Source: Escherichia phage D6
DNA: 64,000 bases
Reading direction: 5' to 3' (one strand)
Sequence record: NC_050154.1
The notes below the pieces were generated by a model. That model was given only the letters and a program-made list of their open reading frames with translations, had not been told where the DNA came from and ran no database searches. Position numbers and translations under genes: made by a program. Positions 56,958 through 64,000 of the stretch are shown here, in pieces (the stretch's first letter is position 1; each line of letters starts with the position of its first letter).

Positions 56958-57116
56958 TATTCTCAATTCGCTCTCAAATTTATCTCACTATCAGACCATC
57001 ATTCGGTGGGTGATTAAGATATTCTCAAAATAAACTCAACAAGCGCCCTTTTTTATCTCGTTTGGTGTGGATTTTTGGGGGCTTCTCTTTTAAAATTACA
57101 TTTTGATTCTCAAATG
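56958..57116 (+). repeat. parC-like centromere region with repeated TTCTCAA(A) motifs
   Basis: tattctcaattcg, gctctcaaattt, atattctcaaaat, tgattctcaaatg upstream of parM. Confidence 0.4.
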
Positions 57117-57139
57117 TGTCTCAGAAGTGGAGCAAGAAG

Positions 57140-58096
57140 ATGCGCATTTTTATCGATGATGGTTCAACCAATATCAAAATGCTGTGGGAGCACGACGGGG
57201 AAACTCGCACTCACATCAGCCCTAACAGCTTTAAGCGCGGATGGTCAGCAACATTTGGTGCGGGCAAGCCGTTTAACTATGTCATTGACGACGAAAAGTA
57301 TTCATACGACTTGATATCGCCAGATGTTCTGCCGACGAATAATGTGGAATGGCAATACAGCCCGCTTAACGTCCTGGCTGTTCACCATGCCCTGCTGACA
57401 AGCGGTATTGAGCCGCAGGAAGTAGAAATTGTGGTCACGCTGCCTCTGGCAGAGTTTTACGACGACGACGCGCAATACAATCTCGATAACATCGAGCGCA
57501 AGAAAGCCAGTCTTATGCGCCCCGTCACGCTGAATAAAGGCAATGTATTCACTATTAAGAAAGTTACGGTACGCCCGGAGTCTATCCCGGCGGGAATTAG
57601 CCTGTGCGACAATCTGAACCCTGCCCACTCTGTTCTTATCGTCGATTTGGGTGGAACTACCCTTGATGTTTCAATGGTCGCTGGACAAATGACGGCAGTT
57701 TCCCGTGTTTTTGGCGATTCGAATCTTGGTGTATCACTGGTCACCAGGGAAGTAAGGCAAGCACTTGCAAGGGCCAATACCGAAACGTCAAATTACAATG
57801 TTGATCAGCTCATTATTAACCGCCACGATGAAGATTATCTGAACGACAATATCAATGACCCATCAGCGATTGGTGATGTGAAAAAGGCCATTGCCGCAAG
57901 CATTGACCGTCTGCGTACCCGCGTTCTTGATGTGATTGGCGACTTTAAAGGATATACGCATGTCATGGTGATCGGTGGTGGCGCACCGCTGGTGGCAGAT
58001 GCAATTCGCGAGCAAGTTAATATTCGTGATGACCGTTTCTTCGTGGCGGATGACCCGCAACTTGCTCTTGTTCATGGCCTGAAAGCAATCGGTTAA
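57140..58096 (+). CDS. parM: Actin-like plasmid segregation ATPase ParM (StbA)
   Basis: MRIFIDDGSTNIK ... ISPNSFKRGW ... VAVHHALLTSG closely parallels plasmid R1 ParM; ATG at 57140 with GGAG RBS. Confidence 0.85.
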   Translation: MRIFIDDGSTNIKMLWEHDGETRTHISPNSFKRGWSATFGAGKPFNYVIDDEKYSYDLISPDVLPTNNVEWQYSPLNVLAVHHALLTSGIEPQEVEIVVTLPLAEFYDDDAQYNLDNIERKKASLMRPVTLNKGNVFTIKKVTVRPESIPAGISLCDNLNPAHSVLIVDLGGTTLDVSMVAGQMTAVSRVFGDSNLGVSLVTREVRQALARANTETSNYNVDQLIINRHDEDYLNDNINDPSAIGDVKKAIAASIDRLRTRVLDVIGDFKGYTHVMVIGGGAPLVADAIREQVNIRDDRFFVADDPQLALVHGLKAIG

Positions 58097-58102
58097 CGAG
58101 GT

Positions 58103-58447
58103 ATGTCCATGTCTCAGGAACGTAAGAAAGTGATGATTTATCTTCGCCCAGAGGCTTATGCCAATGAAAAGGCGGCGAGCGAGAAGATAAAAAAACATAG
58201 CGATATGGCAAGAACTGCATTGTTGGCAGGGCTTGCGCTGGGAGAAGTCGATAGCAGGCTTCCAGGATTACTGGCTTCCCTGCTGACCGAAGACAATAAC
58301 CCGGAGCTGATCCGAAAAATGCTGGCATCCTTCTTGGAACTACCAGCTGCGGTTGAGGAGCGCCCTGCCTCCATTGAGCCAGTGAAGGAGCAATTTGTTG
58401 CCAAAAGCGCGTCGGCGCGCAATCTGGCTGACTCTCTACCTGATTGA
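58103..58447 (+). CDS. parR: ParR (StbB) centromere-binding adaptor
   Basis: 114 aa; RTALLAGLAL matches R1 ParR RAALTAGLAL; directly downstream of parM. Confidence 0.7.
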   Translation: MSMSQERKKVMIYLRPEAYANEKAASEKIKKHSDMARTALLAGLALGEVDSRLPGLLASLLTEDNNPELIRKMLASFLELPAAVEERPASIEPVKEQFVAKSASARNLADSLPD

Positions 58448-58465
58448 CAGAAGATGTGCTGGTTT

Positions 58466-58490
58466 AAGGCTGCAAATTGCAGCCTTTTTT
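58466..58490 (+). terminator. Rho-independent terminator after parR
   Basis: aaggctgca-aat-tgcagcctt followed by TTTT. Confidence 0.65.
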
Positions 58491-58500
58491 ATGCCTTAAT

Positions 58501-58570
58501 GGTGTCTAATTAGTGTTAATCTGGCACCAGTTAGGTGCTGTTATGGTGCAATTTTGTATCTGGTTCCAAT
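58501..58570. repeat. GGTGC/GGTTC-type repeats at ~11-bp phasing upstream of parA (putative centromere/operator)
   Basis: ggtgtc, ggcacc, ggtgct, ggtgca, ggttcc spaced about one helical turn apart. Confidence 0.4.
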
Positions 58571-58734
58571 TTGGGGCTGCTTTCGTGTTAAATAGGATGC
58601 AATATAAGGTGTATTTGGTCTGATTGATGTTATACTTTGCCAAACATTCATGACTCCATTATAGAGCCTGTCCCGCATCAAAAAGGCTCTTATCTGGAAC
58701 CGTTTTGATACCAAAATCACACCGAGGAACGGAT

Positions 58735-59376
58735 ATGATTATATTGGTAGTCAGCCAAAAAGGTGGCTGTGGAAAATCAACCACAAGCGTAAACATCTGT
58801 GCGGAGCTTGCCCGCGAAAATAAGGATGTAGTGTTACTAGATGCAGACAAGCAAGGAACAGCTGCCCGCTGGGCAGCTGACCGTAACACGGCAGAGGTTT
58901 CTCCTGTAATTCATTGTGTCCAGAAGTTTGGTAATATTCGAGAAACACTTCTCGATCTGGATAAGCGTTATGAATTTGTAGTTGTTGATACAGCCGGGCG
59001 CGATAGCAAAGAGATGCGTACAGGCATAACCGCTGCAGATATTGTGTTGGTCCCATTCAGACCATCTCAACCAGATTTAGACACGCTGGCACACTTTGTT
59101 GAAGTGTTTGAAGAGGCTTTGGACCTGATGCCTAATCCTAGCATCAAGGCGTTCGCAGTCTTAACAATGGCCCCATCCAATCCGGTTGTGAATGAAACCA
59201 ATGAGGCCAAAGAGTACCTGGCTGAATATCCGCAACTGAAGTTGCTGAAAACCATCATTCGTGATCGTAAGGTTTACCGCGATTGCATGGCTGAAGGGAA
59301 GGGCGTTGTTGAGATGGACAACGGGAAAGCTAAAGGTGAAATCCAGATGTTGGTTAAGGAGTTATTAAGTGATTAA
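58735..59376 (+). CDS. Small ParA-family partition ATPase (type Ib)
   Basis: Walker A KGGCGKST; 213 aa from ATG at 58735 with GAGGAA RBS. Confidence 0.75.
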   Translation: MIILVVSQKGGCGKSTTSVNICAELARENKDVVLLDADKQGTAARWAADRNTAEVSPVIHCVQKFGNIRETLLDLDKRYEFVVVDTAGRDSKEMRTGITAADIVLVPFRPSQPDLDTLAHFVEVFEEALDLMPNPSIKAFAVLTMAPSNPVVNETNEAKEYLAEYPQLKLLKTIIRDRKVYRDCMAEGKGVVEMDNGKAKGEIQMLVKELLSD

Positions 59377-59656
59377 GCCTCGTAAATCGGTAAAAGCCCC
59401 CGAAGTAAAAGACCCTGATCTTGAACGCCGAATTGAGGATTTTGCCAGTAAGGCTGATTTGGTGCCGGGTGAGCAACCAGAAGACAACAAAGTGCTCGAT
59501 AAGGACGCTCCACGTGATTTTAAATCTATTCGTGTTGGTTTCAATGAATACGAGTACCAAGTACTTGATGCGTTAAGTAAAAAGCATAATCGCAGCAAAT
59601 TGAATATGATCCGCCATGCTATCCTCATGTTAGCGGAGTCTGAGGAAGCAAAATAA
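59369..59656 (+). CDS. ParG-like centromere-binding protein (ribbon-helix-helix C-terminus)
   Basis: 95 aa; GTG start with AAGGAG RBS overlapping the parA stop; C-terminal IRVGFNEYEYQVLDALSKKHNRSKLNMIRHAI is RHH-like. Confidence 0.5.
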   Translation: MIKPRKSVKAPEVKDPDLERRIEDFASKADLVPGEQPEDNKVLDKDAPRDFKSIRVGFNEYEYQVLDALSKKHNRSKLNMIRHAILMLAESEEAK

Positions 59657-59924: not shown

Positions 59925-61586
59925 ATGAGTGAGGCAGAAGCCCGCCCGACTAACTTTATTCGTCAGATCATCGATGAAGATCTGGCCAGTGGTAAGCACA
60001 CCACAGTACATACCCGTTTCCCGCCGGAACCGAATGGCTATCTGCATATTGGTCATGCGAAATCTATCTGCCTGAACTTCGGGATCGCCCAGGACTATAA
60101 AGGCCAGTGCAACCTGCGTTTCGACGACACTAACCCGGTAAAAGAAGATATCGAGTACGTCGAGTCGATTAAAAACGACGTTGAATGGTTAGGTTTTCAC
60201 TGGTCTGGCAACATCCGTTACTCCTCCGATTATTTTGACAAACTCCATGCCTATGCTGTTGAACTGATCAACAAAGGCCTGGCGTATGTTGACGAACTGA
60301 CGCCGGAACAGATCCGCGAATACCGCGGCACCCTGACGCAGCCGGGTAAAAATAGCCCGTACCGCGATCGCAGCGTTGAAGAGAACCTGGCGCTGTTCGA
60401 AAAAATGCGTGCCGGTGGTTTTGAAGAAGGTAAAGCCTGCCTGCGTGCGAAAATCGATATGGCTTCGCCGTTTATCGTGATGCGCGACCCGGTGCTGTAC
60501 CGCATTAAGTTTGCTGAACACCACCAGACTGGCAACAAGTGGTGCATCTACCCGATGTACGACTTCACCCACTGCATCAGCGATGCGCTGGAAGGTATTA
60601 CGCACTCTCTGTGTACGCTTGAGTTCCAGGACAACCGTCGTCTGTATGACTGGGTACTGGACAACATCACCATTCCTGTTCACCCGCGCCAGTACGAATT
60701 CTCGCGCCTGAATCTGGAATACACTGTGATGTCCAAGCGTAAGCTGAACCTGCTGGTGACCGACAAGCACGTTGAAGGCTGGGATGACCCGCGTATGCCG
60801 ACCATTTCCGGTCTGCGTCGTCGTGGTTACACTGCTGCTTCTATTCGTGAGTTCTGCAAACGCATCGGCGTGACCAAGCAGGACAACACCATTGAGATGG
60901 CGTCGTTGGAATCCTGCATCCGTGAAGATCTCAACGAAAATGCGCCGCGCGCAATGGCGGTTATCGATCCGGTGAAACTGGTTATCGAAAACTATCAGGG
61001 CGAAGGCGAAATGGTCACCATGCCGAACCATCCGAACAAACCGGAAATGGGGAGCCGTCAGGTGCCGTTTAGCGGTGAGATTTGGATTGATCGCGCCGAT
61101 TTCCGCGAAGAAGCTAACAAGCAGTACAAACGTCTGGTGCTGGGTAAAGAAGTGCGTCTGCGTAATGCTTATGTGATTAAGGCAGAACGCGTCGAGAAAG
61201 ATGCCGAAGGTAATATCACCACCATCTTCTGTACTTATGACGCCGATACCTTAAGCAAAGATCCGGCAGATGGTCGTAAAGTCAAAGGTGTTATTCACTG
61301 GGTGAGCGCGGCACATGCGCAGCCGGTTGAAATCCGTTTGTATGACCGTCTGTTCAGCGTGCCGAACCCAGGTGCTGCGGATGATTTCCTGTCGGTGATT
61401 AACCCGGAATCGCTGGTGATCAAACAGGGCTTTGCTGAACCGTCGCTGAAAGATGCGGTTGCGGGTAAAGCATTCCAGTTTGAGCGTGAAGGTTACTTCT
61501 GCCTCGACAGCCGCCATTCTACGGCGGAAAAACCGGTATTTAACCGCACCGTTGGGCTGCGTGATACCTGGGCGAAGTTAGGTTAA
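59925..61586 (+). CDS. glnS: Glutaminyl-tRNA synthetase
   Basis: 553 aa; HIGH motif (HIGH at residues ~40-43), VMSKR motif; near-identical along its length to E. coli GlnS as I recall it. Confidence 0.95.
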
Positions 61587-61611
61587 TAGGTATTTCGCCA
61601 CATAAAAAAGT

Positions 61612-61636
61612 AAACGCCGCTACTGCGGCGTTTTTT
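61612..61636. terminator. Bidirectional rho-independent terminator between glnS and dam
   Basis: aacgccgc-tact-gcggcg followed by TTTTTT; A-run upstream. Confidence 0.7.
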
Positions 61637-62540
61637 ACTTCATTATTGCAATTATATCGTTAGCAACTACACGTGTTGACGCCTTGCAGGACACCGACCG
61701 TCTGGCTGCCATATGATGTACTTTAAACCCGTTTCCTTCATATAGTTCACGGATGTTTGGCGCACCACTATTTGTTATCACTACCTTAGCGCCGCGCTGG
61801 TGGGCTTCCACCAATAGAGATACCAGCCGTTTCTGTTCGTCGAAACGGAAGCTATTTCCTGAATAACTGGTAAACCCTTCTGTATCCGGCAGCGGTTCAT
61901 ACGGCGGATCGCAAAAAATCACATCGCCTTCACCAGCCGCCTCGATGACGCCAGCAAAGTCACCTGATACAAAGGACGTGTTTTTGAGTACGTCATCAGC
62001 CAAAAATGCCTCCATCTCTGCATGTGGGAAGTAGGGCGCTTTGTATTTGCCATACCCCACGTTGAACTCGCCATTTTGGTTGTACCGCGTTACGCCATTA
62101 AAACAGTGCCGATTAAGGTACAAAAAGGCGGCAGCATGATGTAGCTGGTCATACTTTCCTCTGTTAAATGCCTCACGCACTTCGAGGTAAGCGTCAGCGT
62201 TGTTGTAATTTTGGAAAAAACTATATGACAGCGTGACGAGCGAATGTCCTTCTCGCTGCAATGTCTGATAGAAGTTAATCAGGTCACCGTTAATATCATT
62301 AAGCAGGTTGTGGCGAAATCCTGCATTCGTAAATACGGAACCGCCACCAACGAATGGTTCTATTAACCGCTTACCGTGTGGTAGATGCTCAAGCACTGTA
62401 GGCAATTCTGAGAATTTACCACCTACCCATTTGAATATCGGACGCTCATATTCATCCGGAGTCCGAATGGTGCGCATATAGCTAATTTCAGCCATCGTAT
62501 CCTGTTTTTCTATGGCTATGCTTGCTATAGATTTACTCAT
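61635..62540 (-). CDS. dam: Dam-family N6-adenine DNA methyltransferase
   Basis: KWVGGK, FLYLNR, EFNV and DPPY motifs aligned to E. coli Dam; ATG at 62540 overlaps the upstream gene stop (ATGAGTAA). Confidence 0.8.
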   Translation of the reverse strand: MSKSIASIAIEKQDTMAEISYMRTIRTPDEYERPIFKWVGGKFSELPTVLEHLPHGKRLIEPFVGGGSVFTNAGFRHNLLNDINGDLINFYQTLQREGHSLVTLSYSFFQNYNNADAYLEVREAFNRGKYDQLHHAAAFLYLNRHCFNGVTRYNQNGEFNVGYGKYKAPYFPHAEMEAFLADDVLKNTSFVSGDFAGVIEAAGEGDVIFCDPPYEPLPDTEGFTSYSGNSFRFDEQKRLVSLLVEAHQRGAKVVITNSGAPNIRELYEGNGFKVHHMAARRSVSCKASTRVVANDIIAIMK

Positions 62541-63213
62541 AGAGCACCCCCTTATTCGCTTCGAAAACTGCCTTTGCGAATCCATGTGGAGTAGCACTTC
62601 GAAAATTAGCCCTGTCAGGCCCTGGTGGCGCGGCATGGATTCTGTTATCTGGCTTGCCTAATGATTCGTCCATTAGGGCATCAGGCATGACAAAGCCCTG
62701 GCCGCTCCAGAGGCATGTTTTTTTGGTGTAGTTATCTTCCTGACAATATGCAGTGAAGAAGTAAGGGTGAAAGATGTGATCTGGCTTACGCCAGAATGTC
62801 GATATTTTGCTGACCGGATTTTCAATCATGTACGGACAACCGATCATCTTTGCAATGTCATAACACTGCCAGACAACCTGCATTGCTTTGAACTGGAAAA
62901 CCGGATCTTTATTAGCCTTGTCCGAAAACCAGCGCGCGCCGGAAACAGCCAGGTCAGTACACGGTGGGAACCCGGCCAGAAACACGATGCGCTGCAAATT
63001 CTTACGGAGAAAAGCGTATACTTCATCGCTATCGATGATCGCACTAATACGCGTCAGAACGGCACCTGATTGCATCCGCTCGTCACTGGTCGATAAGTGC
63101 TGTGGATCGACGATAGCGGCATCGACACCGTATTCCAGCCAGGGGGCAACCATTGCCCCCGTAAAATCACAAAGACTCACAACAAGCGGTCGGTTATTAT
63201 CGTTCTGCTTCAC
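62533..63213 (-). CDS. Compact C5-cytosine-methyltransferase-like protein (start uncertain)
   Basis: [12 protein letters not shown] (PC motif IV-like) and YMIENP (ENV motif VI-like); candidate GTG start at 63213 with GGAGG RBS; too short for a full C5-MTase with target-recognition domain. Confidence 0.4.
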
Positions 63214-64000
63214 CGCCAATGGCCTCCACCAGCGCGTTAAACAGTGCAGATAATTCGCCCGTAAAGAGCACGAAATCAGCATCAAATCGTTGTGCTACAT
63301 CCTCCCGGTCGATATCGTCGTTCTGGTCATAGAGATCATCACAGAATGTCAGGGCTTTGATACTCATATCATCGTTGACTCTGAACGACGCGCGGTCCAT
63401 CCAGTTAATTGCAACGGTCGTAGCTACTTTCCCCGCCTCAATGTGAGACATAATCTCGTCGGACTGTAGATCAACTTTGTTGCAGCGAACGGCACCACCA
63501 TTATCGAGCAGACCCTTTAATGTGGCGTCTTCACCTGCTGTAAATCCGGCAGGGAAGCCGTTTTTAAACCACTCGGTCATTGTAATTTCCAGCGGTTCGC
63601 GTGGTGTGAATGGAATGACAGGCAGGCTGCCGAGCGATTTTCGCAATAAAGCCAGCTGGTCCTCTGCCTTTTTGGCGCTGCTTGCCTCAACGAATACCAG
63701 ATGGTTTCTGCGGTCGATCAGGATTTTGGCGAGTGATTTTCTCGTGAAAGCACGAGGAAGAAGAGAGTGAAGCACTTCATCCTTCAGCGAATCTTTTTCG
63801 GTCTTCTTCAGCTTTCTGTCTTGCTCTTCTTCAAGTGTCAGGATTTTTTTCTGTAACTCTTCTTTGAGCACTTGAGAAGGTAGGATTTTTTCCTCTCGTT
63901 TATGCTGTATCAGAAGAAAACCCTGGTATTCATGGGTGAGGTTGTCACCAAGAACGGAGGTCCAACCAGCTTTAGCCATATCCTGAGAACCGCATGGGGT
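63197..64000 (-). CDS. rdgC: RdgC-like recombination-associated protein (5' end beyond window)
   Basis: EEKILPS ... [21 protein letters not shown] ... [20 protein letters not shown] matches E. coli RdgC over its C-terminal ~260 aa; P1 carries a homologue (hrdC) next to dmt. Confidence 0.85.

Follow-up and report, generated by a model that had tools for sequence, protein, structure and literature searches.

The question raised by this locus is how a D6-like phage has arranged the DNA methylation genes that P1 carries next to its rdgC homologue. In P1 the order is uhr–hrdC–dmt, where the rdgC-like hrdC is followed by a single gene whose 754 amino acid product, Dmt, is a bifunctional methyltransferase (MTase). 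At the equivalent position of Escherichia phage D6 (NC_050154.1) two separate, overlapping ORFs follow the rdgC homologue, and a sequence-only reading of this DNA took them for a split pair. We analyzed the stretch of 64,000 nucleotides that contains them (the window), which belongs to a D6-like plasmid prophage of E. coli and Salmonella, a distant relative of P1, based on plasmid matches and on published work (PMC6799933). The explanation that best fits the data, with a probability of about 0.8, is a three-gene operon in a D6-like prophage that encodes an autonomous compact cytosine-C5 MTase and a complete Dam. The features of the locus are listed here by position:

61612–61633, no strand assigned: bidirectional intrinsic terminator, common to the convergent glnS and Dam genes (stem and T-runs)
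61635–62540, minus strand: Dam-family N6-adenine DNA MTase, 301 amino acids, ATG start (PF02086, E = 2e-56)
62466–63196, minus strand: exchangeable cassette of 731 bp, containing the compact MTase and the first ~25 Dam codons (blastn breakpoints against the sibling plasmids L011 and L012)
62533–62540, minus strand: 8-nt overlap of the compact MTase TAA and the Dam ATG (ATGAGTAA; sequence reading)
62533–63213, minus strand: putative compact Dcm-like DNA cytosine-C5 MTase without a target-recognition domain (TRD), 226 amino acids (PHROG 757, E = 4e-78)
63197–63213, minus strand: 17-nt overlap of the rdgC 3′ end and the compact MTase GTG (sequence reading)
63197–64000, minus strand: rdgC, homologue of P1 hrdC (PF04381, E = 8e-88, profile positions 39–298 only)

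From the ORF reading, the order on the minus strand is rdgC, the compact MTase and Dam; the 3′ 87% of rdgC lies within the window and its start is beyond the window end at position 64000. An 11-bp inverted repeat sits directly upstream of this start, outside the window. In the terminator between Dam and glnS, 6 of the 9 stem pairs are GC, and on either strand the stem runs into a stretch of T. The 17-nt overlap has identical boundaries in GenBank CP082672 and in the published annotation of pYU39_89. At the other junction, AAGGGGG lies just 5′ of the Dam ATG/compact MTase TAA overlap and the two ORFs share the 8 nt ATGAGTAA, so this is a plausible site of translational coupling between the compact MTase and Dam. 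The first estimate of 215–250 amino acids for the upstream protein stems from alternative starts. The best supported form, of 226 amino acids, starts at a GTG with GGAGG 9 nt upstream and agrees with the family alignment and with the published annotation, while a 250 amino acid TTG form falls inside rdgC. In the RefSeq entry the N-terminus is truncated to a 206 amino acid ATG form, which loses the conserved motif-I region.

The presence of two MTase genes is real but largely ordinary and had already been annotated. In the re-annotation of pYU39_89 (CP011430) the same genes appear as rdgC_2, a 681-nt ‘putative DNA-cytosine methylase’ and a 906-nt dam_2 (PMC6799933); this plasmid is 99.9% identical across the region and the published gene boundaries are the same. 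Megablast of the 2.5-kb region against a phage genome collection that does not hold D6 (MF356679) gave no match.

One explanation for the two ORFs is that they are a single bifunctional gene, as dmt is in P1, which a frameshift has recently broken or which was misread in sequencing. Such a gene has precedents: the slot holds one fused gene in P1 and in 21 sibling D6-like plasmids, and a compact-MTase::Dam fusion protein is known elsewhere. Yet at least 97 independently assembled plasmids keep the rdgC/compact MTase/Dam arrangement, with two frames, a TAA in frame at the end of the first and a separate Shine-Dalgarno sequence for the ATG of the second, and the trio is also found in relatives of only 63–75% identity, whose overlap sequences are different (4 nt in L015 and L016, 19 nt in L013). 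Both ORFs are also under purifying selection; dN/dS is 0.07–0.08 for all three genes, measured against an allele that is 88–99% identical. The fused alleles themselves argue against breakage, since their N-terminal module is a different, non-homologous one. In the 21 siblings a 1441-bp P1-type PF00145 module stands in place of the 731-bp cassette and is fused in frame to Dam, giving 762 amino acid products that carry PF00145 and PF02086. The C5 module of L011 shows 94% protein identity to P1 Dmt, and 94–97% nucleotide identity to P1-like plasmids. The fused and separate alleles thus differ by a cassette swap and not by a frameshift, no P1-type single Dmt polypeptide is present in the two frames of the window, and we regard a broken gene as extremely improbable.

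The word ‘split’ also fails for the short protein itself. When the pair was aligned with P1 Dmt, the Dam protein matched residues 478–753 with 69% identity, but BLASTP detected no similarity between the compact MTase and the Dmt N-terminal domain. The two are assigned to different PHROG families (757 for the compact MTase, 116/363 for the Dmt N-domain type), and hhalign of the family profiles against the Dmt N-domain gave a probability below 1%, with an N-domain alignment of 4 sequences that is too shallow (Neff 1.6) to make this a true negative. Judged by these comparisons, the compact MTase is a non-orthologous replacement of the Dmt C5 domain.

For the downstream gene the expectation of a full Dam-like enzyme was confirmed. 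The protein matches PF02086 with 192 bits (cut-off 22; E = 2e-56) and TIGR00571 with 249 bits (cut-off 115), it contains an FVGGGS motif and a DPPY motif (61899–61910), and its dN/dS is 0.080. By these profile matches and the alignment to Dmt, it is a complete Dam-type N6-adenine MTase and an orthologue of the C-terminal domain of Dmt. The annotation of P1 Dmt gives GATC as its methylation site, and by its identity to the Dam domain of Dmt the D6 enzyme is presumably GATC-specific as well.

The PC and ENx motifs that were first noticed in the short protein are real. F82-P83-P84-C85 (motif IV, with nucleophile Cys85) is encoded at 62959–62970, the Cys85 codon being 62959–62961, and E131-N132-P133 (motif VI) at 62815–62823. 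Among 107 diverse homologues C85, E131, P133, K164, T166 and W169 never vary; a second set of 122 diverse sequences shows the PC and ENx motifs to be invariant as well, with N132 present in at least 90%. Other motifs deviate from the canonical form. The motif I position reads L-C-D-x-T-G-x-M, with one glycine only, the second glycine of F-x-G-x-G being absent, and the motif VIII position reads Y-T-K164-K-T-C-L-W, with lysines where QxRxR has arginines. The C-terminal helix carries R-S-A-T-P-x-G-F-A, and only ~35 residues separate K164-W169 from R205-S-A-T-P in the slot where canonical C5 enzymes have a TRD of 80–175 residues. The dN/dS of the gene is 0.084, and one homologue has an intein directly before the catalytic Cys.

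Profile searches place the protein, on its sequence, among the compact cytosine methylases of phages, a large family that had been recognised before. It matches PHROG 757 with E = 4.3e-78 (residues 2–224 on profile positions 8–222 of 247). At E < 1e-5 the number of homologues exceeds 7900, and grouping at 50% identity gives 2635 clusters, almost all with lengths of 200–280 amino acids; homologues occur in 1578 phage records. No model in Pfam or NCBIfam recognises the protein, PF00145 gives no match even at E ≤ 1, and none of the PADLOC or REBASE-type MTase models matches it. PF00145 is reached at a sub-threshold level by 9 of 107 family members (best E = 0.0039). A search of PDB sequences with the protein and the family profiles gave nothing significant, the best match being DNMT2 at E = 0.89. 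In profile alignments to canonical C5-MTases, PPC nevertheless lines up with PCQ and ENP with ENV, in register.

The structure prediction points the same way. An AF2 model built from an alignment of 122 diverse sequences has a pLDDT of 96.4 and a pTM of 0.91, and the best 50 Foldseek matches listed from the PDB are all DNMT3A/3B/3C catalytic domains, 49 of them at E ≤ 1e-3, with a best E of 1.4e-5 and a TM of up to 0.54. Structural matches in BFVD are phage and viral cytosine methylases. The predicted fold is the class-I Rossmann-like catalytic fold of C5-MTases. An AF2 model with a pLDDT of 86, built on a shallow alignment, had matched DNMT3 and DNMT1 weakly. With two genes in two frames and an MTase fold in the short protein, the two-MTase finding is therefore favoured.

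Does the short protein act on DNA, or does it only serve Dam? It had been suggested that it could be a degenerate domain or a regulatory partner, and one hypothesis makes it a remnant without activity, or an accessory subunit without catalysis of its own that modulates Dam, for instance by DNA binding or altered specificity. The missing TRD, the lack of a canonical motif I or VIII and of a Pfam match would suit this hypothesis, as would the tight coupling to Dam in all D6-like relatives examined and the existence of a natural single-chain fusion of a compact domain to Dam (P0121, 563 amino acids). Degeneration is contradicted by a dN/dS of 0.08, by a catalytic Cys, Glu and Lys that are invariant over 2600 clusters and by an active homologue, in which mutation of C82, E128, K175 and K176 abolishes the effect (bioRxiv 10.1101/2023.08.16.553469). 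A regulatory role is unlikely, since in phages the great majority of the family stands alone: in Drexlerviridae, Phapecoctavirus and one Klebsiella phage there is no adjacent Dam, and any Dam lies elsewhere in the genome, as in KarlJaspers at a distance of 7 kb. Moreover, sibling plasmids put a canonical C5 domain in the same slot, which suggests that the slot is selected for C5 methylation. A remnant or accessory is therefore improbable in our view, and of the options first proposed it is the minimal C5-MTase without a TRD that fits the evidence.

The active homologue is the Dcm of phage K42, which corresponds to the Dcm-like protein of KarlJaspers (Bas06 gp55). BLASTP aligns the KarlJaspers protein (711-bp gene) to the compact MTase with 37% identity over 213 residues (E = 2e-41), and its catalytic Cys, Glu and Lys-Lys are in register with C85, E131 and K164/K165; its C82, E128, K175 and K176 are the residues mutated in K42 Dcm. 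It matches the PHROG 757 profile with E = 6e-86, and PF00145 with E = 0.27 over motifs I–IV. K42 Dcm is reported, from LC-MS, to place 5mC on the msDNA of retron Ec86, by which the retron is triggered, and in dcm+ MG1655 the host Dcm leaves msDNA poorly methylated while the phage enzyme methylates it (bioRxiv 10.1101/2023.08.16.553469). The phage Dcm was itself toxic, and its CCWGG target was assumed, not mapped, in the preprint (bioRxiv 10.1101/2023.08.16.553469).

Another hypothesis is that the enzyme is active but is not a sequence-specific 5mC MTase of duplex DNA, acting instead near-non-specifically or on a short motif, on ssDNA or hairpins, on RNA (m5C), or by transfer of another alkyl group. 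The absence of a TRD speaks for it, and so do the toxicity of the phage enzyme and its msDNA methylation (bioRxiv 10.1101/2023.08.16.553469); since host Dcm methylates msDNA poorly and the phage enzyme well, we find plain CCWGG specificity hard to reconcile with the data. The compact MTase is also missed by the PADLOC and REBASE-type models, and its best PDB profile match, though not significant, is the tRNA m5C enzyme DNMT2. On the other hand, the product of the homologue was 5mC in DNA (bioRxiv 10.1101/2023.08.16.553469), the structural neighbours are DNMT3-type DNA enzymes and not RNA enzymes, and the alternative occupant of the slot is a canonical DNA C5-MTase. We consider such another substrate or reaction unlikely.

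A somewhat less unlikely, but still tentative, option is that the compact enzymes methylate cytosines with relaxed specificity, or gain specificity through oligomerising or docking to a partner, which in D6 would be the coupled Dam. Without a TRD they might not read a conventional 4–6 bp motif alone. M.EcoGII is a non-specific adenine methylase, and a relaxed compact enzyme would be its C5 counterpart. If this is true, the D6 pair would be a two-subunit broad-spectrum anti-restriction methylase and not two independent enzymes. Motif counts show GATC at expectation and CCWGG enriched (146 observed, 91 expected); we take this enrichment to be the usual pattern of enterobacterial DNA, and therefore to be uninformative on MTase specificity.

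To return to the autonomous enzyme, which we prefer, rdgC, the compact MTase and Dam would form a three-gene operon for DNA metabolism, of which the window contains the 3′ portion. By analogy with its homologue and with its catalytic core kept, the 226 amino acid protein would be an autonomous SAM-dependent DNA cytosine-C5 MTase, co-transcribed with Dam, and translation of the two is probably coupled through the 8-nt overlap. The pair would methylate phage or plasmid DNA on C and A, perhaps during lytic growth or establishment, which may protect it against restriction; by analogy with P1, GATC sites for packaging and replication could be methylated as well. The locus would then be a site where C5 modules replace one another before a conserved Dam core; the module is of the compact stand-alone type here and of the P1 type, with a TRD and fused to Dam, in the siblings.

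The practical value of these observations is modest. A phage cytosine methylase family of 2635 clusters is without a Pfam or NCBIfam model, which is why PGAP labels the protein ‘hypothetical protein’, and surveys that connect methylomes to genes through PF00145 will miss the compact family. The D6 and P1 prophages offer a clean natural experiment, in which a free C5 module and an unrelated fused one stand before the same Dam core, and the swap is useful for asking what benefit the C5 activity brings and how a TRD-less methylase picks its sites. It is also conceivable, as a family member triggers Ec86, that this retron might sense the carriage or induction of D6-like prophages.

The closest known systems include pYU39_89, whose description (PMC6799933) offers no analysis of the MTase family, of its lack of a TRD or of the fused allele that can stand in its place. 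The Drexlerviridae Dcm of KarlJaspers and K42 is of the same PHROG 757 family, with 236 amino acids against 226 here, and shares the DNMT3-like fold of the compact MTase model; the activity data belong to this homologue only. It differs in the stretch that links motif VIII to the C-terminal helix (a mini-loop), and because of this the target specificity of the D6 enzyme need not equal that of KarlJaspers Dcm. The Drexlerviridae gene also stands alone, whereas the MTase gene in the window overlaps Dam. The closest solved fold is the catalytic domain of mammalian DNMT3A/3B, with 10–15% sequence identity and a TM of 0.4–0.54. DNMT3, too, is a C5-MTase whose TRD is unusually small, but with ~280 amino acids it keeps motifs VIII–X and works as a dimer or tetramer with DNMT3L. 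Like the D12-class Dam enzymes of E. coli and T4, the D6 Dam is a full-length PF02086/TIGR00571 protein with FVGGGS and DPPY; it stays under the cut-off of the host Dam equivalog NF008152 (240 against 441 bits) and has an N-terminal extension of 25–30 residues, which is part of the exchangeable cassette.

P1 HrdC is 52% identical to RdgC (compared as the full 301 amino acid gene, from the identical plasmid L001), and the place of dmt in the operon matches that of the MTase pair. The P1 operon has uhr and a C1-controlled promoter upstream, whereas the D6 operon follows baseplate genes, and the P1 C1 operator consensus ATTGCTCTAATAAATTT, with up to 3 mismatches, was not found within 26 kb around it. 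In the Dmt C5 domain, motif VIII (Q207-R-R-x-R) and motif IX (R385-R-L-T-P) lie ~175 residues apart. Dmt holds its N-terminal PF00145 domain and its C-terminal Dam in one polypeptide, where D6 has two, yet both loci offer the same pairing of a C5-type with an N6A-type MTase.

As the sequence-only reading had described, a short C5-like gene and a Dam gene lie beside rdgC in the region 61635-64000, and this layout is confirmed by family matches to three co-directional genes on the minus strand:

63197 to past the window end, minus strand: rdgC (PF04381, E=8e-88)
62533-63213, minus strand: short ORF of 226 aa, GTG start at 63213 with GGAGG 9 nt upstream
61635-62540, minus strand: Dam gene (PF02086, E=2e-56; TIGR00571, 249 bits with the cut-off at 115)
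61612-61633, no strand: bidirectional terminator that ends the operon, facing the convergent glnS

Since the PF04381 match begins only at profile position 39, rdgC is cut by the window end. A 17-nt overlap joins the rdgC stop to the start of the short ORF, and the Dam ATG overlaps the TAA of the short ORF by 8 nt (ATGAGTAA), preceded by a Shine-Dalgarno-like run, AAGGGGG. For the short ORF the GTG at 63213 is the best start; the 226-aa product retains L-C-D-x-T-G, an N-terminal segment that is near-invariant in the family, and GenBank CP082672 uses the same start. The RefSeq/PGAP model WP_044862276.1 (13034-13654 in L001, a plasmid identical in this region) begins at an internal ATG, is called a 206-aa hypothetical protein and loses this motif-I region.

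We estimate at about 0.8 the probability that two independent, co-expressed methyltransferases modify the DNA of this element at cytosine-C5 and adenine-N6, with GATC as the probable adenine site of Dam. The short protein has no match among the Pfam, NCBIfam and PADLOC models and matches PHROG 757, 'DNA methyltransferase', with E=4e-78. It has more than 7900 homologues at E<1e-5, and the family, clustered at 50% identity, comprises 2635 clusters whose lengths lie almost entirely within 200-280 aa. Family members are found in 1578 phage genomes (including Drexlerviridae, rV5-like phages and Phapecoctavirus), and in the phages inspected the gene stands alone among early or replication genes. The lack of a curated profile in these three collections is a practical gap, and m5C surveys based on PF00145 (e.g., PMC11954522) would miss a compact family of more than 2600 clusters.

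C85 (in F-P-P-C), E131 and P133 (in E-N-P), K164, T166 and W169 are invariant in 107-122 sequences, each only 33-51% identical to the query. Only ~35 residues separate the K164-W169 block from the C-terminal R-S-A-T-P-x-G-F-A helix, whereas the N-domain of the P1-type bifunctional C5 and Dam protein, Dmt, has ~175 residues between motifs VIII and IX. A conventional target-recognition domain (TRD) could not fit here. The AlphaFold model (pLDDT 96.4, pTM 0.91) has 49 PDB matches at E<=1e-3, and each of the best 50 listed is the catalytic domain of a DNMT3A, 3B or 3C (lowest E=1.4e-5, highest TM 0.54). An earlier model of lower confidence (pLDDT 86) matched phage and giant-virus cytosine methylases in a viral structure library. 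With PHROG 757, the predicted DNMT3-type fold and the ~35 residues in the TRD position, the proposal of a minimal C5-MTase without a TRD holds at the level of sequence and predicted structure. It is quite improbable that the protein is inactive or regulatory; the idea of a degenerate domain fails on the invariance of C85, E131 and K164 in homologues and on a dN/dS of 0.084 against a sibling allele of 88% nucleotide identity (Dam, 0.080; rdgC, 0.071).

One family member of 548 aa, P0222, carries a Hint and LAGLIDADG intein between F-P-P and the catalytic Cys. The intein runs from CFTGDT to VHN, after which the methylase sequence resumes with C-T-N-L-S-V-S-G. Inteins tend toward the active sites of functional enzymes.

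Experimental data exist for a homologue. Phage K42 is closely related to KarlJaspers/Bas06, and its mutants that escape retron Ec86 are reported to be altered in a 711-bp 'dcm' gene; expression of this gene raised 5mC in msDNA, as measured by LC-MS, and the C82A/E128A/K175A/K176A mutant was inactive (preprint 10.1101/2023.08.16.553469). KarlJaspers gp55, also 711 bp and in PHROG 757, has C82, E128, K175 and K176 at exactly the mutated positions. The window protein is 37% identical to gp55 (E=2e-41) with C85, E131 and K164/K165 in register; its link to the K42 data runs through the Bas06 homologue and not the K42 sequence itself. Its segment from motif VIII to the C-terminal helix differs from that of gp55, and the CCWGG target of K42 Dcm was taken over from host Dcm, the one test being mutation of the msDNA site (10.1101/2023.08.16.553469); the D6-type enzyme may therefore have another target. 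That the protein is active on an unconventional substrate or with unconventional specificity is an unlikely reading.

Over the window as a whole there are more CCWGG sites than expected (146, with 91 +/- 9 expected), and GATC occurs about as often as expected (232 against 240). CCWGG excess is the usual pattern of enterobacterial DNA, and the excess seen here is provisionally attributed to it rather than to the plasmid's methylase. By analogy with P1 and general phage biology, the two methylases may protect the element's DNA from restriction, and GATC methylation would act on packaging and replication sites.

E. coli plasmid NZ_CP122910.1 matches the 2.5-kb region at 100% identity and Salmonella pYU39_89 (CP011430) at 99.9%; in all, 129 non-mobilizable plasmids of ~90 kb have it, their hosts being Escherichia, Salmonella and Shigella. 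Tail, capsid, Icd and Ref genes of the P1 kind are present on these plasmids, and with P1 gp23 the capsid protein shares only 44% identity. Phage D6 and pYU39_89 were reported to be 99% identical, and the re-annotation of the latter shows rdgC_2, a 'putative DNA-cytosine methylase' of 681 nt and dam_2 of 906 nt at the same boundaries (PMC6799933). The literature thus already contains the arrangement, named in a table of that paper without analysis; the annotation stands in a published D6-like prophage, and the family is recognised and partly characterised.

The neighbouring glnS (59925-61586, plus strand), convergent with Dam, encodes a full-length glutaminyl-tRNA synthetase of 553 aa and is a cargo gene ('moron') in all D6-like genomes (PMC6799933). 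Two adjacent partition/stability modules occupy 57116-59656 on the plus strand:

57116-58447, plus strand: parM/stbB-like module
58705-59656, plus strand: parA with a small 'cop'-like ORF

Just upstream of the rdgC start, ~110-150 nt past the window end and inside the 59-bp gap between gp5 (baseplate) and rdgC, lies a perfect 11-bp inverted repeat, TTTGTGTTAGA-N17-TCTAACACAAA (L001 14612-14650). It is a candidate operator or hairpin; in the 26 kb around the operon, with up to 3 mismatches allowed, nothing matched the consensus of the P1 C1 operator.

In 21 plasmids of the same replicon type a single 762-aa PF00145+PF02086 gene stands between rdgC and glnS. The blastn breakpoints fall at 62465/62466, within the first ~25 Dam codons, and at 63196/63197, at the rdgC stop, and exchange 731 bp in the window for 1441 bp in the fused-gene plasmids. 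In one of these, p13ZX28-90, the Dam side is 99% and rdgC 82% identical to the window, and the C5 module shows 94% protein identity to P1 Dmt and 94-97% nucleotide identity to ~480 P1-like plasmids. Because the Dam side is 99% identical and the C5 module 94-97% P1-like, this points to a recent recombination with P1-type elements that would have brought in the fused C5 module. The two-gene arrangement is shared by far more distant relatives (proteins 63-75% identical), where stop and start overlap in a way particular to each, and is thus old in the D6 lineage. A frameshift origin was rejected, given the different cassette in the fused alleles and the age of the arrangement; that the two ORFs are a sequencing artefact is extremely improbable. 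Plasmid pGMI14-002_2 (L017) shows sharp mosaicism against window 61500-64000 (Dam 99%, compact MTase 88%, rdgC 82%), and an apparent hotspot of recombination lies at the 5' end of Dam.

In P1 the gene order is uhr-hrdC-dmt, and in Dmt (754 aa) the N-terminal part is a PF00145 C5-MTase and the C-terminal part a Dam. The alignment with Dmt, proposed beforehand as a check, matches in the Dam half (69% identity to residues 478-753) and not in the N-terminal half; the window RdgC is 52% identical to the P1 homologue HrdC. Neither BLASTP nor profile-profile comparison with a shallow four-sequence alignment of Dmt N-domains found similarity of the short protein to the N-terminal half, and the PHROGs differ (757 against 116/363). 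The earlier suggestion of a split dmt is therefore rejected for this pair. Between hrdC and a fused Dmt of 836 aa, the P1-like Cronobacter phage JK004 has an extra 191-aa ORF (L010 1752-2327) that matches no family. P1 Dmt has a compact analogue in P0121 (563 aa), the best-scoring representative of the compact family, in which a compact C5 domain (residues 2-253) and a PF02086 Dam domain (residues 303-546) are naturally fused in one chain.
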